DNA of 64,000 nt from Pasteurellaceae bacterium (GCA_900756155.1 CAAEJV010000018.1:32251-96250); one strand, 5' to 3'; positions 3,578-60,400 are shown, counted from the first letter of the stretch. The notes: a model not told the origin generated them from the sequence alone. Numbers and translations: made by a program.

Positions 3578-4444
3578 ATGTCCTCATTTTTGCGTTTACC
3601 CTTTTTATTTTGTCTGCTGATATTTACGCAAATCACGCAAGCAGAACCCGACTTTAAGATTCCACCTATTCAAGAAAACATGAAAAAAATGTATCAAATT
3701 CAACAAAAAGATTTTACCTTTGAAGACAAACATTACCGCTTGTTTATTGCGGTACCACCAAAAACATCGCAAAAACTGACCGCACTTTACACCTTAGATG
3801 GCAATGCTCAATTTCCAATGGCCGTAAATGCTGTCAATCCCAATAAACCTCTCCCGCTTATTGTCGGTATCGGTTATGTATCAGATAAAGCTTATGTCAT
3901 TGAAGAACGCACGAGAGACTACACTTTCCCGGCAGAAGGTACCGAATTCGCCAAAGGAGGAAAAGCCGCCGATTTTTTACGTTTTATTCAACAAGACGTA
4001 AAGCCTTATATTGAACAGCATTTCGATATCAATAAGGAAAAACAATATTTCTTTGGTCATTCTTTTGGTGGGTTATTTGGATTGTACGTACTCTTCCATC
4101 AACCGGATTTATTTCAATATTACACCTTGGCAAGCCCTTCTCTTTGGTGGGGGAACGGCTCATTTCTACCTCAAAATGAACCATGGATTAGCCAAAAACC
4201 ATCACATATTCTGATTACATTAGGCTATTATGAAGAGCATCCTGAACAGGATCCGAATATGACTGAAGAACAATTACAGCGTATTAATCAACGGAAACAA
4301 ATGCGAACAATCAATGCGCATCAATTGGCGGAAATATTGGAAAAACAAGGTAATTCCGTGGAATTTATTTCCATTCCCAATAAAAATCATGGTGGCTCGA
4401 TTCCGGATGCCATCAAACATTGTTTAGAACAAGTTCAACAATAA
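3578..4444 (+). CDS. secreted alpha/beta-hydrolase, putative esterase (enterochelin/IroE-like esterase family)
   Basis: N-terminal signal peptide, nucleophile elbow GHSFGG, and a size/pattern typical of the 'putative esterase' family. Confidence 0.6.
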   Translation: MSSFLRLPFLFCLLIFTQITQAEPDFKIPPIQENMKKMYQIQQKDFTFEDKHYRLFIAVPPKTSQKLTALYTLDGNAQFPMAVNAVNPNKPLPLIVGIGYVSDKAYVIEERTRDYTFPAEGTEFAKGGKAADFLRFIQQDVKPYIEQHFDINKEKQYFFGHSFGGLFGLYVLFHQPDLFQYYTLASPSLWWGNGSFLPQNEPWISQKPSHILITLGYYEEHPEQDPNMTEEQLQRINQRKQMRTINAHQLAEILEKQGNSVEFISIPNKNHGGSIPDAIKHCLEQVQQ

Positions 4445-4452
4445 AGGCCATA

Positions 4453-4486
4453 AAAAAATCCCCGTTATCATGAACGGGGATTTTTC
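4453..4486. terminator. bidirectional hairpin terminator between the esterase gene and hslO
   Basis: aaatccccgtt-atcatg-aacggggattt, flanked by A-run and T-run. Confidence 0.6.
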
Positions 4487-5353
4487 TTATTGGGCTTGTT
4501 TGAGTTTATCAATCGCTTCTTTATTGAAGAAGTAATGCGTGCCACAACATTCACACTGCATATCAATGCTGCCTTTATGCTCCTCTAAGATTTCCTCAAT
4601 TTCAGCTTCTGGAATCAGTAATAATGCTGCCCCTGAACGCTCAGGTGAGCAACCGCAGAAGAAAGAAACAGTTTGCGGTTCAAAAACTTCCACTACTTCT
4701 TCATGATATAAACGATAAAGCAATTCTTCTGCGGGCAATCCAAATAACTCATCATCTTTTACGGTTGCAGCTAACGTAGTTAAATGCTCAAAATCCTCTG
4801 GTGTACCTTGGCCATCTGGCATAATCTGTAGCAACATTCCTGCAGCAACTGGTTTGCCTTCATATTCACCCGTGCGAATAATAAGCTGAGTTTGTAATTG
4901 TTCTGAACGAACAAAATAGTCTTCTAAACATTCCGTAATCGTTGGTTTATCTAAACCGATAACGCCTTGATACCGCTCACCTTCAGTTGGAGCAATCGTA
5001 ATCACTAATACGCCTTTGCCGATCATATCATGAAGGCTCATACCGTCTTGAATATCGCCTTGTACACGTGCTAATGCACGGATCTGTTGTTGGTCATTAC
5101 CATTTACTAAAGCTAATTTTAATGGACCATCACCTTGAATTTGAACAGTAATATTACCGTTAAATTTTAATGTTGCAGTCAATAAATTAGTCGCCACCAT
5201 CATCTCACCTAATAAGTTTTGTACCGCTTTTGGATAATGATGAGTATTCAACGTATCAGTAAAAGTTTGATTTAATCGCACCCATTCACCACGCACGGCA
5301 CGGTTTTGGAAAAGGTAGCGGTAAAGTTTGTCATTGTCTTGAGTGTAATTCAT
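4487..5353 (-). CDS. hslO: redox-regulated chaperone Hsp33
   Basis: 288 aa with the C-terminal zinc centre CGCSPER...CECCGTHY characteristic of Hsp33. Confidence 0.93.
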   Translation of the reverse strand: MNYTQDNDKLYRYLFQNRAVRGEWVRLNQTFTDTLNTHHYPKAVQNLLGEMMVATNLLTATLKFNGNITVQIQGDGPLKLALVNGNDQQQIRALARVQGDIQDGMSLHDMIGKGVLVITIAPTEGERYQGVIGLDKPTITECLEDYFVRSEQLQTQLIIRTGEYEGKPVAAGMLLQIMPDGQGTPEDFEHLTTLAATVKDDELFGLPAEELLYRLYHEEVVEVFEPQTVSFFCGCSPERSGAALLLIPEAEIEEILEEHKGSIDMQCECCGTHYFFNKEAIDKLKQAQ

Positions 5354-5439
5354 TATTTGTTCCTATTTATTCTTTGAGTAAAAAGCGCGGTCAATTTTTC
5401 GAATAAATCGTAAACATTCAAAAAAGATGTCATTTTGTT

Positions 5440-5448
5440 ACCGCACTT
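5440..5448 (-). repeat. Hin-type uptake signal sequence (single copy)
   Basis: The plus strand reads accgcactt, the reverse complement of the USS core. Confidence 0.7.
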
Positions 5449-5551
5449 TGCGCCTGAGCAGTATTATGGGGGTGAAAATCAAAATTACAAGCCAAAAAGA
5501 AAAGCGGATAGCTTTCACTATCCGCTCACTTTATAAAATTAAACTGATAAA

Positions 5552-6673
5552 TTACCAGTATGCACGTAAACCGATAACAGTTTTGAAATCACGGCTACGA
5601 TCAAGCTGTTTACCTGCGTCATCAAAGGTATTCTCGTATTTAGTACGAGTCGCTTGCCATTCAATGAATGGTTTAACTTTTAATGAACCTTGATTATACA
5701 CATAGTATTCAGTACCCACTAAGAATTGGCGATCTGTTGATTTGGAATATGCAGAACCCACAGGTAACGTTTTCTCAGTTTTATAAGAATACATTGCATA
5801 TACGTTCCAGTCTTCATTTAAACCTTGGCGAATTACTGCGGTTACTTCATTATTTTTTACCTTGTTACCTGCGCCATCTTTATTTTTAGTATCTTTGTGA
5901 GCAAAGTCTAAACCATAAGTAGTGTGAACAAAGTTATATGCTAAGCCTAAAGCATAAGCATTGCTGTAGTATGCTGTTTTGTCAGCATTTTCAGAAATTT
6001 CACGAGTGAAACCTGCTGCGACAGTTACATTTTGGATACTATCAATTTCATGATCAAAGATAAGACCTGTACCCCAAGTGTTTTTACGGTTATTTTTTAA
6101 ATCTACGTTTTTGATGTCACGTTTGCTTGAACCGCCATAGTACGCACCAAATTTCACTTTATTTGAGCCGTAGTCACCATTATAAACATATTGTGCTACA
6201 CGACGAGCTGAAGTCTCTAATAAACCATCAGTCAAGCTATAAGTATTTGCTAAATCACTTTGTGTTACTTCATCAGTGATAGTTACCATGTTACCGTAAG
6301 TTAACTCACCGAATTGTTTGTGGCCAAAACCAGCATAAAGTTGACGAGTATAAACATGGTCAAAATCATGTTGTGAAGGCGCTTCACCACGCATACGCCA
6401 TTCCGCACGACCTAAAGCATAGAAATCGCCACCTAAACTTTGTTTTAATTTAAAGCCAAAACGTGAACCATCGTTATCAACTGCATGGTTGATGTGCTCT
6501 TTGCTTTCACCGCCCGCTACATAGTTAGTTTTGTTAGAGGTGCTTTCCCATTTAACACGTAAAGAACCGTAAAAATCAACATCTGTACCAGTTTGGTCAA
6601 TGTGGAAGTTATAAGCTTGTGCAGAACCTGCTGCTAATGCCGCTACAGATAAAGCAAGAAGTGTTTTTTTCAT
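5552..6673 (-). CDS. ompP2: outer-membrane porin, OmpP2-like (Pasteurellaceae general porin)
   Basis: Signal peptide MKKTLLALSVAALAAGSAQA and beta-strand-rich sequence with aromatic girdle residues. It ends in ...GLRAYW (C-terminal aromatic), as in OmpP2. Confidence 0.8.
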   Translation of the reverse strand: MKKTLLALSVAALAAGSAQAYNFHIDQTGTDVDFYGSLRVKWESTSNKTNYVAGGESKEHINHAVDNDGSRFGFKLKQSLGGDFYALGRAEWRMRGEAPSQHDFDHVYTRQLYAGFGHKQFGELTYGNMVTITDEVTQSDLANTYSLTDGLLETSARRVAQYVYNGDYGSNKVKFGAYYGGSSKRDIKNVDLKNNRKNTWGTGLIFDHEIDSIQNVTVAAGFTREISENADKTAYYSNAYALGLAYNFVHTTYGLDFAHKDTKNKDGAGNKVKNNEVTAVIRQGLNEDWNVYAMYSYKTEKTLPVGSAYSKSTDRQFLVGTEYYVYNQGSLKVKPFIEWQATRTKYENTFDDAGKQLDRSRDFKTVIGLRAYW

Positions 6674-6838
6674 AACGCTTTCCCTATTATTTAATGAAGT
6701 TTATTAAAAAATTGAACTTTTTGCAGTTTATACACTACAACCTAAATGGTCAACCCTAAATTTTTCTAACTATCAGAAAATAGGCAATATTTTGACTAAA
6801 ATCAATCCAGATAAATACATATTCGATTATTTTATCGC

Positions 6839-7792
6839 CTATTTAGTTAATAAATTAAGCGCAGAAAATACTTGGTCTGAGGTAATATTTTCCATTGAAT
6901 TCGCTGTTAAATAGTGCTGATTTTGACCATAACAGCCAATTAAGGTCGGATCTGTTGCGCCATAAAGCGTAATATTTGGTTTATCCAGTGCGGCTGTCAA
7001 ATGGGCAAGCCCTGTATCCACGGACACCACGGCTTTCGCATTAGCTATTTGGTCAGCCAATTCATTCAATGAAAGTTTAGGTAAAACGACCACATGAGAT
7101 AAACCTGTGGCTAATCGCTCTGCTCTCGCCTTTTCTTTTTCATTCCCCCAAGGTAAACGGACTTGAATAGAAAGTGTGGTCAGTTTTTCGATTAAATTCC
7201 GCCATTCTCGTTCTGACCAATGCTTTTCATCTCTTGTTGTAGAGTGAAAAAAAATCACGTAAGGTTCAATAGAATTTACGGAAATAAAATGACGTGCAAT
7301 GCCATAATCCCCTTTTTCTATCGGCAACGGATAAGATAGTGCTTGAGCAAAAAGCTGACGAATACGTTCTACCGCATGTTGTTGATAAGAAATCACATAT
7401 TTTTTATCGTAAAACAAGGAAGCTATCGGCTCACGGATACTTTTGCGGTCATAGCCATGTTTGACACCATTGGCTAAGCGTGTCGCAAAAAAAGCGCTCT
7501 TAAAAAGCCCTTGCGCATCAATCACAGCATCATATTGATTGGCTTGTAATAAAGTGCGGTAAGATTTCCACTCATTTTTGGTCTGAGCCGAAAAAGGCGA
7601 TTTTCGCCAGCGTCTTAAGGCAATTGGAATGATTTGCTTCACTGCCGAATGCCAACGTGGAATTTCGGCAAAATTCTCTTCCACCACCCAATCAATGGAG
7701 AGATTAGGAATAGCACGCTGTGCATCAGTCAATGCCGGCAAAGTATGAATCACATCCCCCATAGAGGAAGTCTTAATCACACATACTTTCAT
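6839..7792 (-). CDS. waaC: ADP-heptose:LPS heptosyltransferase I
   Basis: N-terminus MKVCVIKTSSMGDVIHTLPALTDAQRAIP nearly matches E. coli WaaC (MRVLIVKTSSMGDVLHTLPALTDAQ). GT9 family. Confidence 0.85.
   Translation of the reverse strand: MKVCVIKTSSMGDVIHTLPALTDAQRAIPNLSIDWVVEENFAEIPRWHSAVKQIIPIALRRWRKSPFSAQTKNEWKSYRTLLQANQYDAVIDAQGLFKSAFFATRLANGVKHGYDRKSIREPIASLFYDKKYVISYQQHAVERIRQLFAQALSYPLPIEKGDYGIARHFISVNSIEPYVIFFHSTTRDEKHWSEREWRNLIEKLTTLSIQVRLPWGNEKEKARAERLATGLSHVVVLPKLSLNELADQIANAKAVVSVDTGLAHLTAALDKPNITLYGATDPTLIGCYGQNQHYLTANSMENITSDQVFSALNLLTK
7552..7560 (+). repeat. Hin-type USS core inside waaC
   Basis: Exact match to aagtgcggt. Confidence 0.7.
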
Positions 7793-8694
7793 TTAATTAA
7801 CCTTCTTCCCCAGTGCATAATTCCAAGTCCAGATACGGCTAAAATGCCTCCAATAATTAAGGAGGAATCCACTTGTTCATTCAACCAAACGGCTGAGAAT
7901 AAAATCCCTAAAATCGGCACTAGAATAATATAAGCAGAGGCATTACCTGCGCCTAAGTATTTCACCCCATCAAAATACCATGCATAGGCTAATACTGTGG
8001 CACCAAATGCGAGGCCAAGCAAACTTATCCACTCACCTTGAGATAAATTCAGTACCGTAAGCCAATCGTCTGCACTTTCCATGCATAGAGCACTAATAAA
8101 CAACAATAAAAAACCAAAAATAGAAGATAATGTGGTTGCGGTAAGCGAATCAATGCCGGCGAGTACTTTTCTCGCCAATAAGGTGTAAACGACCCAACAA
8201 ATTAGCGCTCCAATTAATAATATTTGCCCAAAGCCAAATGAATCCATCATTTGTAAAAAATTCCCTTTTGTGAGAGCCAATAATGTTCCGCTCATGGCAA
8301 TAACCATTCCGATTATTACCCAACGATTCCATTTTTCTTTAAATAAAAAAATCGCCAAAAGCGTGGTAAATACAGGGTTTGTCGCCACAATAACAGCCGC
8401 TTGTCCTGCTGGAAGATATTTCAGCCCCCAGATAAAAAATATGGAATAGGCGAAAACACCGAAAAAGGCAGTCACAAACAAACCCATCCACTGATTAGCT
8501 TTTAGTTGTTTAGCATATTTGAAGCGATTCGCCACATATAGCCAAATAATGAGCGGAATAATGGCGAAAAAAAAGCGCATGCTTGAAGCAACAAATGTCG
8601 GCATGGCTTGGGCAATCACTCGCCCCCAGGGCCAAGAGGCGCCCCATAAAATCACCATTCCAATTAATTGTAAATGTATGCGGAGAGGGTTCAT
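7789..8694 (-). CDS. EamA/DMT-superfamily transporter (10 TM)
   Basis: Polytopic membrane protein with duplicated EamA-like halves. Its stop overlaps the waaC start (ATGA). Confidence 0.7.
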   Translation of the reverse strand: MNPLRIHLQLIGMVILWGASWPWGRVIAQAMPTFVASSMRFFFAIIPLIIWLYVANRFKYAKQLKANQWMGLFVTAFFGVFAYSIFFIWGLKYLPAGQAAVIVATNPVFTTLLAIFLFKEKWNRWVIIGMVIAMSGTLLALTKGNFLQMMDSFGFGQILLIGALICWVVYTLLARKVLAGIDSLTATTLSSIFGFLLLFISALCMESADDWLTVLNLSQGEWISLLGLAFGATVLAYAWYFDGVKYLGAGNASAYIILVPILGILFSAVWLNEQVDSSLIIGGILAVSGLGIMHWGRRLIK

Positions 8695-8737
8695 ATCATT
8701 AACATATCCTGTTAGACCTTTTCTATTTACTTAAAGG

Positions 8738-9328
8738 CTATGCTTGGTAAGCTTTTATTTTTTCTCGTAAAGCGGCTTCAAATGCTTCTCGATGAGCATC
8801 ATCTTGAAAGGCTGAATGAGGAATATCTAAAAACAATCCAGAACCAACTCGAATTACTAAATAGCCATATATATTTTCAATATGATGAATATAATGATAA
8901 CTATATAATGTTTGGCAGAGATCTATTTTAATATATAAGCCATCTTCTTGAATTCGTATGGTTTGACTTCCTTTTTCCATTTTGTCGCCTATTTGGTTTT
9001 TAATCATACACATATTCAAATAAGGTCGTATTAGAAGAGCGTAGAAAAAAGAAAGCATTGAGATAGCAAACAATATATATCCCGCATAATAGGCCAAAAT
9101 ATTCTCGTAATAATCATAAAGAACTTCAGCCCAATTCCTCATGAAAAATGCAATAAAAAGACTTGGTATCAAGCAAAATAAATATAATAAAAAATCGCCA
9201 AGCCGCATCATTTTACGAAATTTATTGTGCTTATAAATATCGCGGCTTATTTTTTTTACTGCCTTAGTATAATTTTTATCTAATACGGGTTGATAGGTAA
9301 TTTCCATTTTATATTCTCGCTTTCTCAA
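8738..9328 (-). CDS. hypothetical membrane protein (YcxB-like topology: two TM helices plus a soluble C-terminal domain)
   Basis: AT-rich ORF whose start overlaps the waaF stop. An alternative start MEITYQP at 9307 is more likely. No recognisable catalytic motif. Confidence 0.45.
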   Translation of the reverse strand: MRKREYKMEITYQPVLDKNYTKAVKKISRDIYKHNKFRKMMRLGDFLLYLFCLIPSLFIAFFMRNWAEVLYDYYENILAYYAGYILFAISMLSFFYALLIRPYLNMCMIKNQIGDKMEKGSQTIRIQEDGLYIKIDLCQTLYSYHYIHHIENIYGYLVIRVGSGLFLDIPHSAFQDDAHREAFEAALREKIKAYQA

Positions 9329-11442: not shown

Positions 11443-11946
11443 TTAGCCAAAAAACTCTGTGAAAAACAACCGCACTTTTAAGCCCCAGTAACTTGTCCAA
11501 CCCGTTGTGGCTAAATCCATTTTTCCTTTGTTTAAAATAATAATCGTCGGTGTCACATTCACCTGCCATTGATCCGCAATCTTGCCTTGAGGATCATTCA
11601 CCGTTGTAAACTGATAGTGATGGGTTTGTAAATAATCCTCCACGTCCTTATTTGTCCCCGAACGTAGTGCGACAGAAACTACCGGATAGCCTTCTTCTGA
11701 AAGTGAATTAATCGCTGGAGAAGTATAACGACAATAACCGCACCAACTTCCCCAGAAATAAATGATTGTCGGCTTAGCTTGATCTAATTGAGGTAAAAAG
11801 AAGGCATTTCCCTGTAAATCATAAAGTGCCGTTGCATTGATTTCAGGCGGAATATTAGGTTTACGAATAAAATCAAGAATACTGCTCACGATAATCAACG
11901 TCAGCAAGAGCGAAATCGCATTTTTTAATAAGGTTTTAAGTTTCAC
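11443..11946 (-). CDS. membrane-anchored thioredoxin-fold thiol:disulfide oxidoreductase (TlpA/ResA-like)
   Basis: N-terminal TM anchor and WGSWCGYC active-site CXXC. Confidence 0.65.
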
Positions 11947-11992
11947 AATAAAATTTCATGATCTAGGATAAATGGATTGTAATCGATCAGAA

Positions 11993-12001
11993 AAGTGCGG
12001 T
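11993..12001 (+). repeat. Hin-type USS core with AT-rich 3' flank, at the boundary of the deo island
   Basis: Sequence aaaagtgcggtcaaaattac. Confidence 0.7.
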
Positions 12002-12095
12002 CAAAATTACAGATATTTTGCTATAAATACATTATCTAAACTTGGCATCACATAAAAAATGCTCCTATTATAAAAATAGGAGCATTATTTAATAA

Positions 12096-13115
12096 CTATA
12101 AATTTTCAATTCCTGTAGTTACACTAAATGCTTTTGTCTCTTTAGGTTTTAGCATAATTAAACTTCCTGCTTTTTTAGCTGCTAAAAAACCTTCTGGCCT
12201 ACAAGTTGCTGGTAATACAAATGCACCTACTTGTTGATCCTCATTAAACAAAATCCATCGTGTTGCATAATTAAAGTCTTTAGATGAGAATTTTGTTACA
12301 TAGCTATGCCCACTAGGTGATTTCATTTTATATTCTAAATTCTCTTGATATTTACTTAGATTATCCATAAAGAATACTATTTCAGGATCATACATCACAT
12401 CATTATCTAATTTATCAAGATGGTATTCCCCTTTTTTAATTTTATCATTAAACTCAAGCCACTTTTCTGTTGGGCTAACGTGAGCTGGTATAGTTTCTCT
12501 CAAAACAATAGCCTCATCAGGAATATTCTGTGTTAACACCGCTCCATGCTCATAACAATAATTCATGTGGCACATGTATTGCAATGGCATATCAACACTA
12601 GATAAATTAGTTACACTCATTTGAATATCAAATAAAGTACTATTTGAATAAAGTGTTACAGCTGGTCTTGCTGAATAATGATTTCCAAACCCTTTCACAT
12701 ATTCAACTTCTCCCGTAAGGGTTATTGAATTATTATCAATGATTAACCAGGCATTATTAATAATTGAACAGGGCATCTCTCCATGCAAAACATGATCATC
12801 TTCAGGGCTTGGACAGCCATTTCTGATTAACCCCGAATGAAAAGCAAAACATCCGTAAGTATCAACAATACTATTACCAAATTTCGGCTCAGAAAACATA
12901 TTCTTCATTTTTAATGAATGTTTACCAAATTCAGCATCCCAAATAATTTGACCATAAAAAGGCAATACAATAATAAATCCTTTTTTATTACAAATTTTTA
13001 TTGCTTCAATTCCTGATTCATACTTAAAGCCAAACACTGTAAAATCATTATTACTAAGCAATACTTTTTCATCTCTAGAAAATAATTCTTTGAATAAAAA
13101 TAACTTCGTTTCCAT
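12096..13115 (-). CDS. deoX: DeoX-like protein (aldose-1-epimerase-like fold, putative deoxyribose mutarotase)
   Basis: 339 aa. It is the last gene of a kinase-permease-X operon with the same order and sizes as Salmonella deoKPX. Confidence 0.45.
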   Translation of the reverse strand: METKLFLFKELFSRDEKVLLSNNDFTVFGFKYESGIEAIKICNKKGFIIVLPFYGQIIWDAEFGKHSLKMKNMFSEPKFGNSIVDTYGCFAFHSGLIRNGCPSPEDDHVLHGEMPCSIINNAWLIIDNNSITLTGEVEYVKGFGNHYSARPAVTLYSNSTLFDIQMSVTNLSSVDMPLQYMCHMNYCYEHGAVLTQNIPDEAIVLRETIPAHVSPTEKWLEFNDKIKKGEYHLDKLDNDVMYDPEIVFFMDNLSKYQENLEYKMKSPSGHSYVTKFSSKDFNYATRWILFNEDQQVGAFVLPATCRPEGFLAAKKAGSLIMLKPKETKAFSVTTGIENL

Positions 13116-14446
13116 TATTCCTCTCCTTTTTCTAATTTCATTTTATCCCAGAAGTAATATCCAACATAGATAAAGCAAAGCGTTGGTACAACAAAGGCTA
13201 ATTGTAAAGATCCTAAAGTATCAGAAACATATCCATGAATAGCAGGAACAACCGCAGCTCCAATAATTGACATTACTACAACAGCTCCGGCTACTTCCCG
13301 ATGTTCTTGTTTAACAGTTCCTAATACAGATGTATAAATTGTAGCCCAACATGGTCCAAACAATACACTTGCAAAAATTGCAGCATAAACAGCTGAAAAG
13401 TCATGAACAAAAGAAGTATAAGAGAGAGTAAATACACCAAGAATAGAATACACAAACAATACTGCATCTGATTTAAACTTAGTCATTAAAAAATTTGCTA
13501 CAAATTTTCCGATGAAAAAACCAATAAAACTATATATCATGAAATTTGAAGCATCCCTCTCATTAATATTACTTAAATTTAAAGCTAAACGTATTGTAAA
13601 CGACCATACTGCAACCTGCATGCCCACATATAAAAATTGAGCAATAATTCCTTTCTTAAATTGTTTATTCTTTGATAAATATTTCAATGTATCAATGAAT
13701 TTCACATTAGTAGCTAAAACTTCATTTTCAGCTTTACATCTAGGGAATTTTGTCAATAAGAACAACAAAGTAACAGCAATTAATACAAAAATAAGATATT
13801 TATAAGGTTGTAATGTATGCTCAAGCAATGATAATTTAAATTCATGAGCTTGATCTGGTGACATCGTAAGCAATTGTTCTTTCAAGCTAGCCCCTTCTTG
13901 GAAGATTAAATATTTACCCAGTAAAATGCCAGAAATCGCACCAATCGGATAAAATGTTTGACTAATATTCAGTCTTAATGTCGCATAATCTCGATGGCCG
14001 AGCATAGAACTATAAGTATTCGCTGATGTTTCAAGGAAACTTAAACCGATAGCAATAGAAAATATAGCAGCTAAAAACATAGTATAAGTAGCCATGTGAG
14101 AAGCTGGATAAAACATTGAACAGCCTATAATATACAAGGTTAAACCAATCAAAATAGCAACTTTATAACTTGTTTTCTTTATTACTAGAGAAGCTGGAAT
14201 TGCAATTAAGAAATATCCACCATAAAAGGCACTTTGAACTAATGCACTTGCAAAGTCACTTAATGTGAATACACTCTTAAATTGAGTAATAAGAATATCG
14301 TTTAAGCTCGCGGCAGCCCCCCACAATGGAAATAGGCAAGATAATAATATGAACTGAAATATAGGTGTTCGATTCAAATATCCATCAGGCATTTGCTGTA
14401 TTCCTTTCATAACATACTCCTTATAATTTACCCAAAAAACACTCAA
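13115..14446 (-). CDS. deoP: MFS sugar permease, FucP/GluP family (putative deoxyribose permease)
   Basis: 12-TM MFS protein of the fucose-permease subfamily. The start is uncertain: internal ATGs at 14410 and 14392 are possible, and the ORF overlaps the deoK stop. Confidence 0.65.
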   Translation of the reverse strand: MSVFWVNYKEYVMKGIQQMPDGYLNRTPIFQFILLSCLFPLWGAAASLNDILITQFKSVFTLSDFASALVQSAFYGGYFLIAIPASLVIKKTSYKVAILIGLTLYIIGCSMFYPASHMATYTMFLAAIFSIAIGLSFLETSANTYSSMLGHRDYATLRLNISQTFYPIGAISGILLGKYLIFQEGASLKEQLLTMSPDQAHEFKLSLLEHTLQPYKYLIFVLIAVTLLFLLTKFPRCKAENEVLATNVKFIDTLKYLSKNKQFKKGIIAQFLYVGMQVAVWSFTIRLALNLSNINERDASNFMIYSFIGFFIGKFVANFLMTKFKSDAVLFVYSILGVFTLSYTSFVHDFSAVYAAIFASVLFGPCWATIYTSVLGTVKQEHREVAGAVVVMSIIGAAVVPAIHGYVSDTLGSLQLAFVVPTLCFIYVGYYFWDKMKLEKGEE

Positions 14447-15338
14447 ATTCTTTTTTATCCGGATATGATATTTGAGTTCCTTGACCAGTCACGCTATAAG
14501 CTGAAAATGCAGAGGCCATGTTCAAAGATGCTAAAATATCATGCGTTTTAACAAGATAGTGTGCAAAACATCCTATAAATGCATCCCCAGCTCCACTAGT
14601 ATCAATAGCATTAACCTTATGAGGAGCAATATGATGAATTACATTTCCATCTAGCCATATCGCACCTTTCTCCCCCAAAGTAACAACAAGATTTTTCAAT
14701 CCTTTTGAAATCAATGAATTAGCTGCTATCAGAATCTCATCAATATTAGAAACTGGTAACCCTGTAAGAATTTCTAATTCAGTCTCATTAGGCATAAAAA
14801 AATCACACTTACACACATAATTAATATCTAAATTTGGATCAGCAGGAGCTGGATTTAATATCACAGGTATATTATTTTTAACTGCAAAATCAATTGAGTA
14901 ATAAACAACAGATAATGGAACTTCTAATTGCAAAATAATAAGCTTACATTTTTTAAGTTCATTTTCTGCGTCATCTATATCTTTTGTTGATAAGTGACTA
15001 TTTGCACCTTTAATAATAAGAATGCTATTTTGGGATGACTTATCTACAAATATCGGTGCGACACCACTGGAAACACCTTTTGCTACTGTTACATAATCAG
15101 TATTTATAGCATTCAGATGAAAGTTTTTTAGTGTGTTCTCAGCGAACAAATCATCTCCAACTTTTGTTAACATCATCACATCCGATCCTAACTTAGCAGC
15201 AGCTACTGCTTGATTAGCACCTTTACCTCCACATCCTATCTTGAAGCTAGGAGCTTCGATTGTTTCACCCAACTTAGGCATCCGATCTATATATGTAATC
15301 AGATCAACCATATTTGAACCAATAACTGCAATATCCAT
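14421..15338 (-). CDS. deoK: ribokinase-family sugar kinase, putative deoxyribokinase
   Basis: PfkB/ribokinase signatures (GGKGANQAVAAAKLG; DTSGAGDAFIGCF) in a 305-aa protein. Confidence 0.7.
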   Translation of the reverse strand: MDIAVIGSNMVDLITYIDRMPKLGETIEAPSFKIGCGGKGANQAVAAAKLGSDVMMLTKVGDDLFAENTLKNFHLNAINTDYVTVAKGVSSGVAPIFVDKSSQNSILIIKGANSHLSTKDIDDAENELKKCKLIILQLEVPLSVVYYSIDFAVKNNIPVILNPAPADPNLDINYVCKCDFFMPNETELEILTGLPVSNIDEILIAANSLISKGLKNLVVTLGEKGAIWLDGNVIHHIAPHKVNAIDTSGAGDAFIGCFAHYLVKTHDILASLNMASAFSAYSVTGQGTQISYPDKKEFECFLGKL

Positions 15339-15413
15339 ACGACCTCCATTTCAATTGTTAATAAAGTAACATTTTATTTAAACAACAGTATAATACTCAA
15401 AAAATGTTAAAAA

Positions 15414-15429
15414 AGTGACAAAGATCACA
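15414..15429. promoter_or_regulatory. CRP-like site aGTGA-N6-TCACA in the deoK/deoQ divergent intergenic region
   Basis: aaaAGTGAcaaagaTCACAg. It shares the 14-mer GTGACAAAGATCAC with the site at 26814. Confidence 0.45.
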
Positions 15430-15489
15430 GTTCTAGAAAAAATTTTTATGATATTATTAGAAGCAATAAAACTATAACCACATATCACC

Positions 15490-16233
15490 ATGGACAGAAA
15501 AAACAATTCAAGAATAAAAAGCTTAGAATTTATACTCAGAACAATGAGCTCTATAAAATTAAGAGATGCAGCCAATATACTAAGTGTATCTGAAATGACT
15601 TTAAGAAGAGATTTAAGTACTGAAGGATGCCCCTTAATTCTACTAGGTGGTCACATAGTCAAAGCCCCTCAAAACCATCATGAGGCTAACTATCTGATTT
15701 TTGAACAAGAAAATAAGAATTTAAAGGAGAAAATGACTATAGGTAAAGCGGCTGCAGAACTTGTTGAAAATGGGGATGTTATTTTTTTTGATTGTGGTTC
15801 AACAATCCCTTTTATTGCATCACAAATAAAATCAGATATAAAATTTACTGCACTTTGTTGTTCTCTAAATACATTTACAATTTTGCAAGAAAAAAGTAAT
15901 TGTGAAGTAATACTAGCAGGTGGATCATACTCTAGTCATAACTCATTTTTCACTCCAATTAATAACTCAGAAATAGAATCGATACTTACAACTAAAGCCT
16001 TTATTTCTGCGGCAGGTGTAAGCGATGAATATGGTGTTAGCTGCTTTGATTATAATGAAGCAAAAGTAAAAAAAATGGCAATGAAAAAAAGTAAAAAGAA
16101 TATATTGGTATTTGATCATATGAAAATAGGACTAGTAAGAAAAGCATATATTAATGATTTAAATCAATTCGACTTATTAATATGTGATCAAGAATTACCT
16201 AAAAATTTCATAATAAAGAATAATCATCAATAA
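15490..16233 (+). CDS. deoQ: DeoR-family transcriptional regulator (HTH plus sugar-phosphate-binding domain)
   Basis: N-terminal HTH ...LSVSEMTLRRDL... and a DeoR C-terminal domain. It is divergent from the kinase operon, as Salmonella deoQ is. Confidence 0.65.
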   Translation: MDRKNNSRIKSLEFILRTMSSIKLRDAANILSVSEMTLRRDLSTEGCPLILLGGHIVKAPQNHHEANYLIFEQENKNLKEKMTIGKAAAELVENGDVIFFDCGSTIPFIASQIKSDIKFTALCCSLNTFTILQEKSNCEVILAGGSYSSHNSFFTPINNSEIESILTTKAFISAAGVSDEYGVSCFDYNEAKVKKMAMKKSKKNILVFDHMKIGLVRKAYINDLNQFDLLICDQELPKNFIIKNNHQ

Positions 16234-16262
16234 TAACCGATGACTAAGTTAAGGAGAAAAAT

Positions 16263-16937
16263 ATGAATAGTAAACAATTAGCACAATATATTGACCACAC
16301 TGCCCTTACAGCTGAAAAAACAGAGCAGGATATTCTTAAGCTCTGCGATGAAGCCATTCAATACGGCTTTTATTCAGTCTGTATTAATTCAGGTTATATT
16401 CCTTTAGCCAAAGAAAAACTCGCTGGATCAGATGTAAAAATTTGTACGGTAGTCGGTTTCCCACTTGGTGCCAACTTATCCTCTGTCAAAGCGTTTGAAA
16501 CCCAAGAAGCCATCAAAGCTGGTGCGGGTGAAATCGATATGGTGATTAATGTCGGCTTAATTAAATCAAATAAATGGGATGCCGTAAAAGACGACATTCA
16601 AGCTGTATTAACCGCTTGTCATGGCGTGCCGCTTAAAATGATTTTAGAAACATGCTTACTCACCAAAGAAGAAATCGTGAAAGCCTGTGAAATCTGTAAA
16701 GCGTTAGGTGTCGCATTTGTTAAAACCTCCACGGGTTTCAATAAAGGTGGTGCAACCGTAGAAGATGTGGCATTGATGAAGAAAACGGTGGGCAACATTG
16801 GCGTAAAAGCCTCCGGTGGTATTCGTGATACTCAAACTGCACTAGCCATGATTGAAGCGGGAGCTACTCGAATTGGTGCAAGTGCAGGGATTGCCATTGT
16901 AACTGGTACTTCTGGTAATACTGCAAGCAATTACTAA
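16263..16937 (+). CDS. deoC: deoxyribose-phosphate aldolase
   Basis: 224 aa, with the Schiff-base lysine context VKTSTGF and GFPLG. Strong RBS AAGGAG. Confidence 0.92.
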
Positions 16938-16945
16938 TCAATAAT

Positions 16946-16987
16946 AAAAAAGGAGATTGAAGTGGATGCCTCAATCTCCTTTTTTCA
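16946..16987. terminator. bidirectional terminator between deoC and proS
   Basis: aaaaaggagattgaag-tggatgc-ctcaatctccttttttc. Confidence 0.6.
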
Positions 16988-17002
16988 TCATCAAAGACTA
17001 AA

Positions 17003-51184: not shown

Positions 51185-52174
51185 CTAGTCTTCAGCAATA
51201 CTTGCTGGTGGCCAATTCTCAAGGCGCATACCAAGTGACAAGCCACGTGAAGCGAGAACGTCTTTAATTTCAGTAAGAGATTTCTTACCAAGATTAGGCG
51301 TTTTTAATAACTCAACTTCTGTACGTTGTACTAAGTCACCGATATAGTGAATTGTTTCTGCTTTCAAACAGTTAGCAGAACGAACTGTCAACTCTAAGTC
51401 ATCAACAGGACGTAATAAAATCGGATCAAATTCCGGTTTTTCTTCCTTGACTTCAGGTTGACGAACATCACGCAAATCAACGAATGCATCGAGTTGCTCT
51501 GCTAAAATTGTTGCTGCACGACGAATTGCTTCTTCCGGATCAATAGTCCCGTTAGTTTCTAACTCGATAACTAGTTTATCTAAGTCAGTACGTTGTTCAA
51601 CACGTGCTGCTTCAACATTGTAAGCAATACGGTCAACCGGGCTATAACAAGCATCTACTAATAAACGACCGATTGGACGATCTTCATTTTGTGAATGAGT
51701 ACGAGCAGATGCAGGTACATAACCTCTACCACGTTGAACACGAATACGCATATTAATAGATGCGTTTTCGTCTGTTAAGTGACAGATTACATGTGATGGA
51801 TTAACAATCTCAACATCACCATCGTGGGTGATATCTGCTGCAACAACAGGGCCAATTCCAGATTTATTTAATGTCAGAATAACATCATCTTTATTCTGTA
51901 CTTTAACCGCTAGACCTTTAAGGTTTAAAAGAACTTCAAGAATATCTTCCTGAACACCTTCTTTACTACTATATTCGTGCAGTACGCCATCAATTTCTAC
52001 TTCAGTTACAGCACAACCTGGCATTGAAGACAGAAGGATACGACGTAATGCATTCCCTAGAGTATGACCAAAGCCACGCTCTAACGGTTCTAAGATCACC
52101 TTAGCATGAGTAGAGCTAATTTGCTCGATATCTACTAAGCGTGGCTTTAAAAATTCTGTAACAGAACCCTGCAT
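51185..52174 (-). CDS. rpoA: DNA-directed RNA polymerase subunit alpha
   Basis: [18 protein letters not shown]...; 329 aa. Confidence 0.98.
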
Positions 52175-52205
52175 TTTATCCTCTCTTTGCTTTTAAGCTT
52201 AACTA

Positions 52206-52826
52206 TTATTTAGAGTAAAGCTCAACGATCAGATGTTCGTTAATGTCTGCTGATAAATCAGAACGTTCAGGAACACGTTTGAACACACCTTCCATTTTTG
52301 CAGAATCAACTTCTAACCAAGTTGGTTTTTCTCTTTGTTCTGCTAATTCTAATGATGCTTTAATACGTGCTTGTTTTTTAGATTTCTCACGAACAGCAAC
52401 TACATCATTTACAGAAACTTGGAAAGATGGGATATTTACAACACGACCATTTACGACAATCGCTTTGTGGCTCACTAATTGACGAGCTTCTGCGCGAGTT
52501 GCAGCAAATCCCATGCGATAAACAACGTTATCCAATCTACCTTCTAATAATACTAGTAAGTTTTCACCAGTATTACCTTTTAAACGGTTTGCTTCTTTAT
52601 AGTAGTTACGGAATTGACGTTCTAAAATACCATAGATACGACGAACTTTTTGTTTTTCACGTAATTGACTACCATAGTCAGACAAACGCGGTTTACGAGC
52701 ACCGTGTTGACCTGGTGCTGTATCAATTTTACATTTTGAATCAATCGCACGCACACCTGATTTAAGGAATAAATCAGTGCCTTCACGACGGCTGAGCTTG
52801 AGTTTAGGGCCCAAATATCTTGCCAT
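52206..52826 (-). CDS. rpsD: 30S ribosomal protein S4
   Basis: [24 protein letters not shown]... Confidence 0.98.
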
Positions 52827-52855
52827 TTTCTTTCTCCAACTATCCTATTACGCCA

Positions 52856-53248
<393 letters not shown>

Positions 53249-53261
53249 TTATTTACCCCGA

Positions 53262-53618
53262 CTATTTTTTGATCGGCTTACGTGGACCCTTACGGGTACG
53301 CGCATTAGTTTTAGTACGTTGACCACGTACCGGTAAACTACGACGATGACGTAAACCACGGTAACAACCTAAGTCTAAAAGACGTTTGATGTTTAGTGTT
53401 ACTTCACGACGTAAGTCACCTTCAACGGTAAATTTACCAACTTCGTCACGCAGTTTGTCAATCTGCTCTTCAGACAATTCGCTGATCTTAACATCTTCAG
53501 CAATACCCGCTGCAGCACAAATGCTTTTAGAACGAGTTTTACCGATACCGTAAATTGCAGTTAAAGCGATTACAGCGTGTTTGTGATCAGGAATGTTAAT
53601 GCCTGCAATACGGGCCAC
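53262..53618 (-). CDS. rpsM: 30S ribosomal protein S13
   Basis: [20 protein letters not shown]... Confidence 0.98.
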
Positions 53619-53679
53619 TATGCACTCCTATTATTTTAACTAATTTGGTATTCTGATCTTGAAAAGCCCGTTTTCAGGA

Positions 53680-53740
53680 TACTCAAACAGAATACCAAGG
53701 ACATAAATGAGTTGAGTAGTATAACTACTCAACCGGTTCT
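53680..53740 (-). promoter_or_regulatory. structured alpha-operon leader between rpmJ and rpsM (hairpin ggttgagtag-ttata-ctactcaacc), the likely region of S4 autoregulation and the alpha promoter
   Basis: A perfect 10-bp inverted repeat in the 140-bp rpmJ-rpsM spacer. Confidence 0.35.
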
Positions 53741-53759
53741 TTGCAAGAAGAAATGTTAA

Positions 53760-53873
53760 TTAACCTTGACGTTGTTTATGTTTAGGGTCGCTGCATAATA
53801 CGCGAACAACACCTTCACGTTTAACAATTTTACAGTTACGACACATCTTCTTAACGGAAGCACGAACTTTCAT
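53760..53873 (-). CDS. rpmJ: 50S ribosomal protein L36
   Basis: Not in the ORF track because it is under 60 aa. The minus-strand translation [37 protein letters not shown] matches L36, with the zinc ribbon C..C...C....H. Confidence 0.9.
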
Positions 53874-53901
53874 TGCTTATCCTTTTTACTTAAATGAACA
53901 A

Positions 53902-55227
53902 TTACTGTCCAAAACCTTTAAGGTTTGCTTTTTTTAACGCAGATTCATATTGAGACGACATTAAGTGACTCTGAACTTGCACGATAAAATCCATAATTAC
54001 AACAACAACGATTAATAAGGAAGTACCACCGAAGTAGAATTTAACATCCCATGCTGATGTCATAATATAAGGGACTAAACATACGAACGTTACATAAAGA
54101 CCGCCAATTAATGTTAAGCGAGTCATTACTTTATCAATGTAACGTGATGTTTGTTCACCTGGTCTAATTCCTGGGATAAATGCACCAGATTTTTTTAGAT
54201 TATCTGCTGTATCACGTGGATTATATTGCATCGCAGTATAGAAGAAACTGAAGAAAATAATCGCTACCGCATAAACAAGAAGATATAAAGGTTGTCCAGG
54301 ATTCAACAACATTGATAAGTCATTTAACCACTCAAACTTATCATTCTGACCAAACCATTGTGTCAATGTAGCTGGGAATAAAATAATGCTTGAAGCAAAA
54401 ATTGCTGGCATTACGTTTGCCATATTAACTTTTAATGGTAAGTGAGTTGAATGACCACCTAAAATTTGACGTCCTTGTTGACGCTTAGCATATTCAACAC
54501 GAATTCTACGTTGTCCACGTTCTACGAAGACAACAAAATAAGTTACTGCAAAAACAATAGCAGCGATTAGTAGAAGAACTAAAGGATGCATTTGTCCTTG
54601 ACGAGCTTGCTCAACTGTTTCGATGATTGCATGCGGCAATCCTGCAACAATACCACCAAAAACAAGAATTGAGATACCGTTACCAATACCTCTTTCAGTA
54701 ATTTGCTCACCTAACCACATTAAGAACATGGTTCCGGTAACAAGACTCACTACTGCAGTGAAGTAAAAAGTAAAACCGATATTTGGCACTAACTGTGGCA
54801 ACATATTCGGTAAACCGGTAGAAATTGCGATAGCTTGGATAGTAGCAAAAACCACCGTTGCATAACGAGTATACTTGGTGATTTTTCTTTGTCCTGCTGC
54901 ACCTTCTTTTTTCAATTCTGCTAAAGCAGGTGAAACCGTAGCAAGCAATTGCATCACAATAGATGCCGAGATATACGGCATAATACCTAATGCTAAAATT
55001 GATGCTCGGCTCAATGCACCACCAGAGAACATGTTTAACATATCAATGATGGTGCCTTTTTGTTGTTCAACTAATTGAGCTAGCACGGCGGCATCAATAC
55101 CAGGAAGCGGAATAAAAGAACCAATACGATAAACGATAAGTGCACCTAATACAAAAAGCAATCTGCTTTTTAGTTCACCAGTACCACTATTAGTACTTCT
55201 GCTTTGATAACCTGGTTGTTTAGCCAT
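53902..55227 (-). CDS. secY: protein translocase subunit SecY
   Basis: 441 aa with 10 TM helices, and a canonical SecY N-terminus. Confidence 0.98.
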
Positions 55228-55234
55228 TTGCTAA

Positions 55235-55669
55235 TTATTCCTCAACTGAACCGCCAGCAGCTTCGATTGCTGCTTTTGCACCTTTAGTTACACGTAATCC
55301 ACGTACAGTAACTGCAGATTTCACTTCACCAGCTAAGATAACTTTAGCGAATTGAATATCTTTAGTTAAAATGTTTGCAGCTTTTAATGCTTCTAAAGTG
55401 ACAACATTTCCTTCAACTTTTGTTAATTCGTTTAAACGAACTTCAGCAGTTACCGCTGATTTCATTGAAGTAAAACCAAATTTTGGTAAACGACGGTATA
55501 ATGGCATTTGGCCACCCTCGAAACCACGACGAACACCGCCGCCAGTACGAGATTTTTGACCTTTATGACCACGACCACCAGTTTTTCCTAAACCTGAACC
55601 AATACCACGACCAAGGCGTTTTGCGCTGTGCTTAGCACCTTCAGCCGGAGATAGAGTATTTAAACGCAT
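55235..55669 (-). CDS. rplO: 50S ribosomal protein L15
   Basis: [38 protein letters not shown]... Confidence 0.98.
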
Positions 55670-55673
55670 TCTC

Positions 55674-55853
55674 TTACTCCTCCACTTTAACCATGTATGA
55701 AACTTGGTTAATCATACCACGTACTGCCGGAGTATCGATTAACTCAACAGTATGGTGCATATGGCGAAGACCAAGACCACGCAAGGTAGCTTTGTGCTTC
55801 GGTAAGCGAGCAATTGAGCTACGAACTTGAGTTACTTTAATAGTTTTAGCCAT
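55674..55853 (-). CDS. rpmD: 50S ribosomal protein L30
   Basis: [30 protein letters not shown]...; the start is trimmed from the track ORF to match L30. Confidence 0.95.
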
Positions 55854-55859
55854 TATCAA

Positions 55860-56366
<507 letters not shown>

Positions 56367-56374
56367 TTACCTCA

Positions 56375-56728
56375 TTAGAACTGTAGACCAGCTTCACGTG
56401 CAGCGTCCGCTAAAGTTTGGACACGACCATGATATTTAAAACCGGAACGGTCAAAAGCAACGTCTTTAACGCCTTTTGCTAATGCGCGCTCAGCAACAAG
56501 TTTACCTACTACTGCTGCGGCATCTTTATTACCGGTATATTTAACTTGCTCACGAATTGCTTTTTCAACAGTTGAAGCAGCGGCAAGCACTTCTGAACCG
56601 TTTGGTGCAATAACTTGTGCGTAGATATGACGCGGAGTACGGTGAATAACTAGACGAGTTACACCTTGCTCTCTCATCATATGACGTGCACGAGCTGCAC
56701 GACGGATACGAGCTGATTTCTTATCCAT
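56375..56728 (-). CDS. rplR: 50S ribosomal protein L18
   Basis: [16 protein letters not shown]... Confidence 0.98.
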
Positions 56729-56741
56729 AGTGTTACCTTAA

Positions 56742-57275
56742 TTATTTCTTCTTAGCCTCTTTCATACGTACTACTTCATCAGAGTAACGTACACCTTTAC
56801 CTTTATAAGGTTCAGGACGGCGATAAGCACGAATATCTGCTGCAACTTGACCAATTAACTGCTTATCAGCACCTTTTAAAACGATTTCCGTTTGTGAAGG
56901 GCATTCAGCAGTAATACCTGCTGGTAAAGTGTGCTCCACAGGGTGAGAGAAACCTAAGCTTAATGCAACTACGTTGCCTTTAACTTGAGCTCTGTAACCA
57001 ACACCCACTAGTTGTAATTTCTTAGTGAAGCCTTCAGTAACACCGATAACCATTGCATTAACTAATGCACGAGCTGTACCCGATTGAGCATTCGCTTCAA
57101 CAAAACCTTCACGTGGAGTGAAAGTAAATTGACCATTATCTTGTTTAACTTCAACTGAGTGATGAATTGTGCGAGATAACTCGCCATTTTTTCCTTTTAC
57201 TGTTAATAGCTGACCGTCGAGTTTAACTTCAACGCCGGCAGGAATATTAACAGGTGCCTTTGCAACACGAGACAT
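56742..57275 (-). CDS. rplF: 50S ribosomal protein L6
   Basis: [17 protein letters not shown]... Confidence 0.98.
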
Positions 57276-57290
57276 TTTCCTACCCCTCTA

Positions 57291-57683
57291 TTAAGCTACG
57301 TAACAGATGATCTCACCGCCTAAGCCCGCTTGACGAGCTGCACGGTCAGTCATAACACCTTTAGATGTAGAAATTACAGCAACACCTAAACCACCCATAA
57401 CTTTTGGTAATTCGTCTTTACGTTTGTAAATACGAAGACCAGGACGGCTTACACGTTGGATGCTTTCTACAACCGGTTTGCCTTGGAAATATTTTAAAGT
57501 AATTTCCAATTCAGGTTTTGCACCTTCTAAAACTTTAACGCTTTCGATATAACCTTCAGCAGCTAATACATTGGCAATTGCCACTTTTAGCTTGGAAGAA
57601 GGCATATTGATTGCAACTTTGTTCGCAGCTTGACCGTTACGAATACGGGTCAACATATCTGCGATTGGATCTTGCATACTCAT
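57291..57683 (-). CDS. rpsH: 30S ribosomal protein S8
   Basis: [18 protein letters not shown]... Confidence 0.98.
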
Positions 57684-57719
57684 TGTACTTTTTCTCCGAT
57701 TCCAAAATAAAGTGGTATA

Positions 57720-58905
<1,186 letters not shown>

Positions 58906-58918
58906 TTCTCACTTCTCC

Positions 58919-59293
<375 letters not shown>

Positions 59294-59446
59294 TTATGCT
59301 CCGTTAAGTTAATAATACACCCTTGCGGGACGAACCTATCCATGCCTTATAAAGATATATGGCGGATAGGTGGCGGAGTTTACCAAAATCAAGCTAGAAA
59401 CGCAATCAAAATTTTATGCTTAAATTAGCCTATTTAAAGTGCGGTC

Positions 59447-59455
59447 AAATTTTTA
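59447..59455 (+). repeat. Hin-type USS core in the spc-operon promoter region
   Basis: Sequence aaagtgcggtcaaatttt. Confidence 0.7.
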
Positions 59456-59475
59456 TGACTTTTTAGCAAGTCTTG

Positions 59476-59518
59476 GAAAGAAAAAAGCCAACGGTATAAC
59501 CATTGGCTTTTATTTTTT
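59476..59518 (-). terminator. S10-operon terminator downstream of rpsQ (minus strand)
   Basis: Minus-strand RNA reads aaagccaatgg-ttata-ccgttggcttt then ttttctttcc. The spc-operon promoter region follows (59291-59475), containing one USS. Confidence 0.6.
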
Positions 59519-59528
59519 AACTTGTTAA

Positions 59529-59786
59529 TTAAGCAATAACTGCTTTCTCAACAACACGAACTAAAGTCCAAGATTTGGTTTTAGAGAGAGGACGACATTC
59601 GCGAATCTCTACTACATCACCTAATTTGGCTTCGTTGTTCTCATCGTGTACGTGTAATTTAGTTGTACGACGGATAAATTTACCGTATAACGGGTGTTTT
59701 ACCTTACGTTCAATAGCAACAACGAAAGATTTTTCCATTTTGTCGCTAACAACTTTACCTTGTACGCTACGAATTTTATCAGTCAT
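59529..59786 (-). CDS. rpsQ: 30S ribosomal protein S17
   Basis: [20 protein letters not shown]... Confidence 0.98.

Positions 59787-59976: not shown

Positions 59977-59977
<1 letters not shown>
59786..59977 (-). CDS. rpmC: 50S ribosomal protein L29
   Basis: [18 protein letters not shown]... Confidence 0.97.
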
Positions 59978-60387
<410 letters not shown>

Positions 60388-60400
60388 TTAGCGTTTCTCC

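Follow-up and report, generated by a model that had tools for sequence, protein, structure and literature searches.

The DNA analysed here is a stretch of 64,000 nucleotides from a Pasteurellaceae genome assembly (GCA_900756155.1, CAAEJV010000018.1:32251-96250; hereafter the window), the source of which, judged by sequence identity, is Haemophilus parainfluenzae: the DeoX protein of the window is 100% identical to that of H. parainfluenzae strain C2004002729, and the window is identical to a metagenome contig (L101) over 9-20 kb. Between a thioredoxin-like gene (trx) and the deoxyribose-5-phosphate aldolase gene deoC lie three genes on the minus strand, deoK, deoP and deoX, and a divergently transcribed gene for a DeoR-family regulator (Table 1). 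In the analyses below we examine the hypothesis that the segment ~12025-16233 is a Salmonella-type deoKPX module for 2-deoxy-D-ribose, which varies between strains, has spread horizontally and stands ~30 bp upstream of a resident deoC; we consider this very probable.

An earlier prediction made from the sequence of this stretch (the original prediction) had placed five open reading frames (ORFs) here, namely a kinase, a permease, a mutarotase-like protein, a divergent DeoR-type regulator and, just downstream of the latter, deoC. All five were recovered where it had put them, the permease being 431 residues long, or 443 when its ORF is read from an upstream TTG at 14446 (13115-14446). The stop codon of deoP overlaps the start of deoX by 1 nt, and deoK and deoP are separated by 10 bp. 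The deoC product is a TIGR00126 equivalog (score 314.6, cut-off 117.3), and proS flanks deoC on the right side of the locus. The hairpin between the convergent deoC and proS genes is probably a bidirectional terminator that would end a regulator-deoC transcript. The segment 12025-12095, with the predicted terminator of deoKPX, is missing from alleles that lack the module, and a comparable hairpin lies 3' of deoX in H. haemolyticus.

Table 1. Genes and other features of the deo locus (positions counted from the first nucleotide of the window)
Feature	Position	Strand	Evidence or remark
Thioredoxin-like gene (trx)	11443-11946	-	Left flank, followed by hldD and an rfaF-like gene
Resident remnant of the ancestral trx-deoC intergenic region	11947-12024		Alignment with four empty-site alleles matches to 12024, then diverges
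Hin-type uptake signal sequence (USS)	11993-12001		Inside the resident segment 11947-12024, beside the left junction
3' tail of the insert with predicted deoKPX terminator hairpin (12058-12086) and T run	12025-12095	-	Terminator scan, 12 stem pairs
deoX, DUF4432 protein, 339 aa	12096-13115	-	Pfam PF14486
deoP, FucP-family permease of the major facilitator superfamily (MFS), 431 aa	13115-14410	-	ATG at 14410 according to public gene calls
deoK, PfkB/ribokinase-family kinase, 305 aa	14421-15338	-	Family scan and BLASTP
Divergent control region	15339-15489 (151 bp)		Between deoK and the regulator gene
Putative operator O1, TGTTAATAAAGTAACA	15356-15371		Repeat/pattern search
Candidate overlapping divergent -10 elements	~15387-15394	both	Promoter-like matches
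Putative operator O2, TGTTAAAAAAGTGACA	15405-15420		Repeat/pattern search
CRP-like site, AGTGACAAAGATCACA (TGTGATCTTTGTCACT on the deoK strand)	15414-15429		Overlaps O2
DeoR-family regulator gene, 247 aa	15490-16233	+	PF00455 and PF08220 (DeoR helix-turn-helix, DeoRC); deoQ position; final gene of the insert
deoC, class I deoxyribose-5-phosphate aldolase, 224 aa	16263-16937	+	TIGR00126
17-pair hairpin flanked by an A run and a T run	16946-16985		Terminator scan; between convergent deoC and proS

Within the divergent control region, the two putative operators lie 49 bp apart (positions of about -33 and -82 relative to the deoK ATG), and their outer half-sites equal those of the published 16-bp palindrome of Escherichia coli DeoR, TGTTAGAA-TTCTAACA (PMC5326754). 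The paired operators keep their positions ahead of deoK in about 20 genera of Pasteurellaceae, most of which also keep the CRP-like site overlapping the distal operator, and related operator pairs are found upstream of deoK in Salmonella, Klebsiella, Leclercia and Yersinia. The centre of the CRP-like site is located ~41-42 bp upstream of the start point implied by the TATACT -10 element, a spacing that would make the deoK promoter class II.

By collecting contigs that encode exactly the HldD protein of the window, two forms of the locus were found, which confirms that the module is present in some strains and absent from others (an exact look-up of the DeoC protein gave module-carrying contigs only). 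The occupied form has the order proS-deoC-regulator/deoK-deoP-deoX-trx-hldD, where the slash marks the divergent region (3 places shown, 7 contigs counted); in the empty form, deoC is 110 bp from trx (7 places shown, 9 contigs counted, including isolate GCA_001279145.1). Alignment to four empty alleles puts the left junction after 12024 (GCTAT/AAATAC), and the right junction coincides with the stop codon of the regulator gene, similarity to the empty allele resuming at ATAACC, ~25-30 bp before the deoC ATG. The four genes and the terminator hairpin of deoX make up the whole content of the ~4.2-kb insert. Because the empty arrangement, trx-110 bp-deoC, is also present in Rodentibacter (L111) and on a contig (L113) whose DeoC groups with that of H. 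haemolyticus, it is the ancestral state. A classical genomic island or mobile element was considered and rejected, as the insert has none of its marks and is flanked by deoC and the thioredoxin-like gene; the route of entry was probably homologous recombination or transformation.

The base composition of the insert differs from that of its surroundings. The four module genes have a G+C content (GC) of 0.29-0.34 and a GC content at third codon positions (GC3) of 0.18-0.22 (0.18 for the regulator gene), compared with 0.41 and 0.32 for deoC, a GC3 of 0.30-0.40 for flanking genes and a GC of 0.395 for the whole window, and the 1-kb GC profile falls to 0.31-0.32 across 12-16 kb only. Among 59 runs of four adjacent ORFs, the module ranks first both for low mean GC3 (0.20; median 0.31) and for divergence of codon usage from the rest (Jensen-Shannon divergence 0.075; median 0.025), so that the original prediction of four genes (12096-16233) that are more AT-rich than deoC and the flanks and have a different codon bias is borne out. 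GC3 alone was rejected as a marker of foreign DNA, since it is also low (mean 0.26; several genes 0.17-0.23) in the operons of the ribosomal proteins, secY and rpoA elsewhere in the window (51185-63945, minus strand), and GC at first and second codon positions (GC1 and GC2), the codon adaptation index (CAI) and amino acid composition were used instead. In these operons GC1 and GC2 are high, and the CAI, for which they formed the reference set, is 0.72. In the module, all three codon positions are low (GC1 0.41 vs 0.52, GC2 0.34 vs 0.37, GC3 0.20 vs 0.33), its CAI of 0.43-0.55 is ordinary to low (median of other genes 0.52), and its proteins are enriched in Phe, Tyr, Met, Ile, Asn and Lys (FYMINK) residues, implying that the signal is compositional and does not reflect high expression. 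In other Pasteurellaceae, the GC3 of the module is often below that of its local flanks (0.30 vs 0.50 in Caviibacterium and 0.27 vs 0.38 in Rodentibacter) and sometimes equal to it. In Chelonobacter oris (L048, ~4183-9011) the offset has the opposite sign to that in Haemophilus, with a module GC3 of 0.50-0.54 above flanks of 0.35, which suggests that this copy may have been acquired from a GC-richer donor; the varied offset across the family fits a module that moves between hosts.

We also compared nucleotide divergence across genomes of the H. parainfluenzae complex, 8 being GTDB species representatives. The flanking genes (rfaF, hldD, trx, deoC, proS and nlpD) differ by 3.5-11% from those of the window, compared with 0-1.3% for deoX, deoP, deoK and the regulator gene, and mismatch density switches at ~12021 and ~16266, within ~30 bp of each junction. 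One contig (L110, 4160-8288) carries a more divergent haplotype of the module (0.6-6.7%; 6.7% for the regulator gene, whose product has 244 residues, and 4.4% for deoK). Taken together, the low diversity of the module, the sharp switches at its junctions and its deviant composition point to recent horizontal spread without mobility genes.

Several observations weigh against the hypothesis. H. haemolyticus M26161 has the order comM-deoC-regulator/deoK-deoP-deoX-trx-hldD with the same right junction, and its module diverges by 15-19%, close to the 16.5% of hldD; a further lineage (L116), with a DeoX that is 80% identical, has the same gene order beside hldD. The insertion event is therefore ancient, and loss may explain why some strains are without the module. 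No integrase or other mobility genes were found among the ORFs of the insert, nor any target-site duplication, direct repeats or inverted repeats at its junctions, and among the 37 Hin-type USS in the 64 kb none lies in the module, where 2.4 would be expected, a depletion that is not significant. The operator pattern is not enriched within the window (6 matches vs 4.65 expected), so the support for the operators comes from their conserved position across loci. The promoter calls are consensus matches that occur at chance frequency, with other candidates on offer, and one promoter-like site at the right junction (16207-16234) could give deoC its own transcription. Finally, a literature search gave no relevant paper on deoxyribose use by H. 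parainfluenzae, only single co-mentions in two unrelated reviews.

In view of these data, the most economical interpretation is that the insertion is old in this branch of the family and that one haplotype has recently spread through H. parainfluenzae. Haemophilus is naturally transformable, and the spread would have occurred by homologous recombination in the conserved flanks, with a USS at 11993 beside the junction. Of the acquisition next to a resident deoC that the original prediction had suggested, horizontal spread is supported; the insertion itself is old, and only the spread within H. parainfluenzae is recent.

The strongest alternative is that Haemophilus and its relatives inherited the module at this site from a common ancestor and lost it repeatedly, its AT-richness resulting from long residence as a weakly selected accessory segment and H. 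parainfluenzae having made no recent horizontal acquisition. Besides H. haemolyticus M26161 and the L116 lineage, the location of deoKPX next to hldD-rfaF in Caviibacterium, Necropsobacter and Mesocricetibacter and the low GC3 of the module relative to its flanks in many Pasteurellaceae speak for such a history. However, long vertical residence would give a diversity like that of the flanks, whereas within the H. parainfluenzae complex the divergence of the module is 5-10 times below that of the sequence next to it and the change is sharp at both ends; moreover, the empty alleles hold an intact 110-bp intergenic region, with the same spacing in Rodentibacter and on the H. haemolyticus-related contig. 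We thus regard continuous ancestral residence as unlikely, although the two views are partly compatible, in that an old insertion in the genus may have been followed by recent spread in the species.

The assignment of the genes to deoxyribose rests on full-length BLASTP comparisons with the Salmonella locus (ilvN, deoQ on the minus strand, deoK, deoP, deoX, uhpA) and with E. coli comparators. DeoK is 64% identical to Salmonella DeoK over 302 aa and 35% to E. coli RbsK, DeoP is 70% identical to Salmonella DeoP and 36% to E. coli FucP, and DeoX is 57% identical to Salmonella DeoX over its full length. The best matches are thus to deoKPX and not to ribose or fucose genes, as the original prediction had anticipated, and the three structural genes have the same order as in Salmonella. 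It might be argued that the locus is a ribose (rbsK) or fucose (fucP) system that merely resembles deoxyribose genes, considering that the kinase matches the NCBIfam ribokinase model TIGR02152 (365, cut-off 300) and the permease the L-fucose:H+ symporter model TIGR00885 (327, cut-off 280). However, these models match DeoK and DeoP of Salmonella, where the operon allows growth on deoxyribose, just as well (323.5 for Salmonella DeoP with TIGR00885), and these family names were rejected as a discriminator; the stricter E. coli-type models fail for the two proteins of the window (NF008353, 252 vs a cut-off of 341; NF007524, 289 vs 427). The much higher identity to DeoK and DeoP than to RbsK and FucP and the linkage to deoX, a DeoR-type regulator and deoC also argue against a ribose or fucose system, as does Met10 of the kinase, which aligns with Asn14 of E. 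coli RbsK and is Met in 73 of the 73 module-linked kinases. This residue reportedly, in the work of Tourneux and colleagues, determines whether deoxyribose or ribose is used. A ribose or fucose system is therefore very improbable; the kinase is expected to act on ribose to a minor extent, like that of Salmonella (PMC13432705). At two other loci with DeoX proteins that are 71% identical (L118, 5723-8026, and L119, 867-3170), a 103-aa ORF replaces deoP between deoK and deoX, and the cluster adjoins a complete fucose operon, which encodes a FucP-family MFS permease of its own.

To our knowledge, DeoX is biochemically uncharacterised. A sequence search of the PDB with DeoX gave no match, and a fold search was needed. 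The AlphaFold2 model of the protein (pLDDT 80.7, pTM 0.83) found, by Foldseek, 3TY1 as the best structure, a putative aldose 1-epimerase (E 8e-15, TM 0.76), followed by 3MWX, 4BZE and 1NSZ (GalM structures). The model thus indicates that DeoX has a galactose-mutarotase-like beta-sandwich fold, and invariant His, Glu and Asp residues are present in the family alignment. We propose that DeoX may be a deoxyribose mutarotase or pyranase. The family alignment and the model could guide the biochemistry of DeoX.

With respect to the regulator, the original prediction was only partly correct: deoK, deoP and deoX do lie on one strand with a divergent DeoR-family gene, as in the Salmonella deoQ/deoKPX locus, but the regulator is not an orthologue of DeoQ. 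It is 42% identical to E. coli DeoR and 37% to Salmonella DeoQ, and it scores 262 on the NCBIfam DeoR equivalog model NF007961 (cut-off 244), whereas Salmonella DeoQ, at 237.7, is below the cut-off. In a neighbour-joining tree, the module regulators of Pasteurellaceae form their own clade beside E. coli DeoR, separate from a DeoQ clade that comprises Enterobacteriaceae and Morganellaceae (Providencia and Moellerella). The regulator of the window is thus, as far as its sequence indicates, a DeoR-family repressor in the position of DeoQ, belonging to a Pasteurellaceae clade linked to deoC even where deoKPX is lacking. It resembles E. coli DeoR in the TGTTA...TAACA half-sites of the palindrome and in the paired operators. 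The central six operator bases differ from those of E. coli, and while E. coli DeoR controls deoCABD, nupG and tsx, the regulator of the window is predicted to control a kinase-permease-mutarotase operon and probably deoC. In Aggregatibacter aphrophilus (L114, 4001-7090), deoC is followed by a regulator gene of the same clade (product 58% identical to that of the window) and then comM, deoKPX being absent; a TGTTA-type site is kept upstream of deoC and could be a remnant of the divergent control region.

Relatives of DeoX were confirmed at 541 places in a collection with one genome per species. Four arrangements were found: deoQ/deoKPX without deoC in Enterobacteriaceae; deoQ-deoC/deoKPX in Providencia and Moellerella; regulator-deoC/deoKPX, with deoC adjoining the divergent promoter, in most Pasteurellaceae; and, in the two Haemophilus and L116, a regulator gene adjoining the promoter with deoC behind it. 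The deoQ/deoKPX deoxyribose regulon is known from Salmonella enterica (Tourneux et al. 2000 and Christensen et al. 2003, as cited in other papers), and islands of pathogenic E. coli carry this operon too (Bernier-Febreau et al. 2004, as reported in PMC5382810); in E. coli it is regarded as horizontally acquired (PMC5382810). The window shares with Salmonella paired TGTTA/TAACA-like sites and a CRP-like site upstream of deoK and a pathway completed by deoC, and with the Salmonella-type operon of E. coli an accessory, horizontally transferred nature. In Salmonella, however, deoC is elsewhere, in the deoCABD operon, whereas the module of the window directly adjoins deoC and probably drives its expression; the intergenic region measures 151 bp here and ~313 bp in the Salmonella locus (L011); and the host here is a member of the Pasteurellaceae that lives as a commensal in the human mouth and throat, with a very AT-rich module. 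Nearer relatives are the five-gene clusters of Rodentibacter, Histophilus somni, Pasteurella bettyae, Gallibacterium and other Pasteurellaceae, in which deoKPX is 65-87% identical, the regulator belongs to the same clade (52-62%) and the control region has the same two operators and CRP-like site. These clusters differ from the window in that their own deoC adjoins the divergent promoter and the regulator is distal, the regulator being proximal in H. parainfluenzae, H. haemolyticus M26161 and L116; in the two Haemophilus, moreover, deoC groups with resident copies.

deoC of the window is a resident gene of the host, as the original prediction had assumed: it is retained in strains without the module, its GC3 is host-like, its nucleotide divergence across the complex, 4.4-9.2%, is like that of the flanks, and in the tree it falls among deoC genes that are linked to trx or otherwise lie outside a module (Rodentibacter, Aggregatibacter and Pasteurella multocida) and not with most module-linked paralogues. 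That all five genes, deoC included, arrived as one cassette, as might be thought from the divergent linkage of deoC and a regulator to deoKPX in about 20 Pasteurellaceae genera, Providencia and Moellerella, is hardly credible given its presence at the same place in module-free strains, its GC3, its 4-9% divergence between strains against ~1% or less for the module, its grouping with non-module copies and the order regulator then deoC, most five-gene clusters having deoC then regulator. Unlike the window, Rodentibacter keeps two deoC genes, the trx-linked resident one (L111, 5001-5672; product 85% identical to the DeoC of the window) and a module-linked paralogue (68-69%; L035, L039, L041, L044 and L047).

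Orthology suggests how the pathway would work. DeoP would import deoxyribose by proton symport, DeoX would interconvert its anomers or ring forms and thereby feed the kinase, DeoK would convert deoxyribose to deoxyribose-5-phosphate with ATP, and the resident DeoC would cleave the latter to glyceraldehyde-3-phosphate and acetaldehyde. According to Price et al. (PMC6365646), this kinase/aldolase route is the only previously known deoxyribose pathway besides the oxidative one that they report. The repressor is predicted to bind both TGTTA-N6-TAACA operators, of which one covers the deoK promoter and the other lies just downstream of it, and deoxyribose-5-phosphate would release it, while CRP at the site overlapping the distal operator would add catabolite control.

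A further question is what the insertion may have done to the expression of deoC. Candidate native deoC promoters are located at 11925-11954 and 11942-11969 (plus strand), with equivalents in an empty allele (L102). Every promoter-like deoC site in the empty allele lies on the trx side of the junction, and where the module is in place 4.2 kb of sequence, along with the deoX terminator, intervenes. The terminator scan found no terminator in the 29 bp between the regulator stop and the deoC start. With the candidate promoters cut off and no terminator in between, deoC is probably co-transcribed with the regulator gene or read from the junction promoter, and either way it would be drawn into the regulon. 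We tentatively suggest, with more doubt than confidence, that the insertion, beyond adding uptake and phosphorylation of free deoxyribose, removed deoC from its own promoter and placed a housekeeping aldolase gene downstream of that for a DeoR-type repressor, where two operators and a CRP site would govern it. If so, carriers would handle all deoxyribose-5-phosphate derived from deoxynucleosides inducibly and module-free H. parainfluenzae constitutively, and strains in the mouth and throat could divide their niches on the basis of this regulatory polymorphism. The locus would, moreover, exemplify natural operon assembly by insertion beside a resident pathway gene, spread by transformation without mobility genes.

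Deoxyribose from degraded DNA is abundant on mucosal surfaces, and H. parainfluenzae is a dominant commensal of the human mouth and pharynx. The deoK operon of E. coli is said, in the work of Bernier-Febreau and colleagues, to be tied to competitiveness in the host. It was acquired by E. coli and is associated with strains isolated from blood and urine infections (PMC5382810). About half of the sampled H. parainfluenzae contigs carry the module, which makes it a testable marker of metabolic variation between strains. The locus is a well-supported but ordinary further example of the Salmonella-type deoKPX system, in which a specialist would find nothing surprising; what sets it apart are the DeoR-clade regulator in place of DeoQ, the docking onto a resident deoC, the variability between strains and the lack of mobility genes. 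It also provides a clean natural example of how an accessory operon can dock onto a resident gene and so complete its pathway, of transfer without mobility genes in a naturally transformable family, and of a regulatory region (two DeoR-type operators and a CRP site) kept across about 20 genera.

Other differences between strains were observed near the locus. A synteny breakpoint lies 3' of deoC (~16938-17002 in the window): the 3' neighbour is proS in the window, L102, L103 and L109, and rpe with a gene for a haloacid dehalogenase (HAD) phosphatase in L104, L105, L107 and L108 (6244-7660). At 8738-9328 (minus strand), between genes for an rfaF-like glycosyltransferase and an EamA transporter, an ORF of 189/196 aa with a GC of 0.305 and no Pfam match is found in L101 and L103-L109 and missing from L001, L102 and L110; besides the deo module, 3 kb away, this is a second, small AT-rich segment with a presence/absence polymorphism. 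Close inverted pairs of USS (AAGTGCGGT / ACCGCACTT) are located at 1516/1539, 18773/18790, 24783/24800 and 27642/27658, for example between proS and nlpD; such inverted USS hairpins at gene ends are the usual arrangement in Haemophilus.

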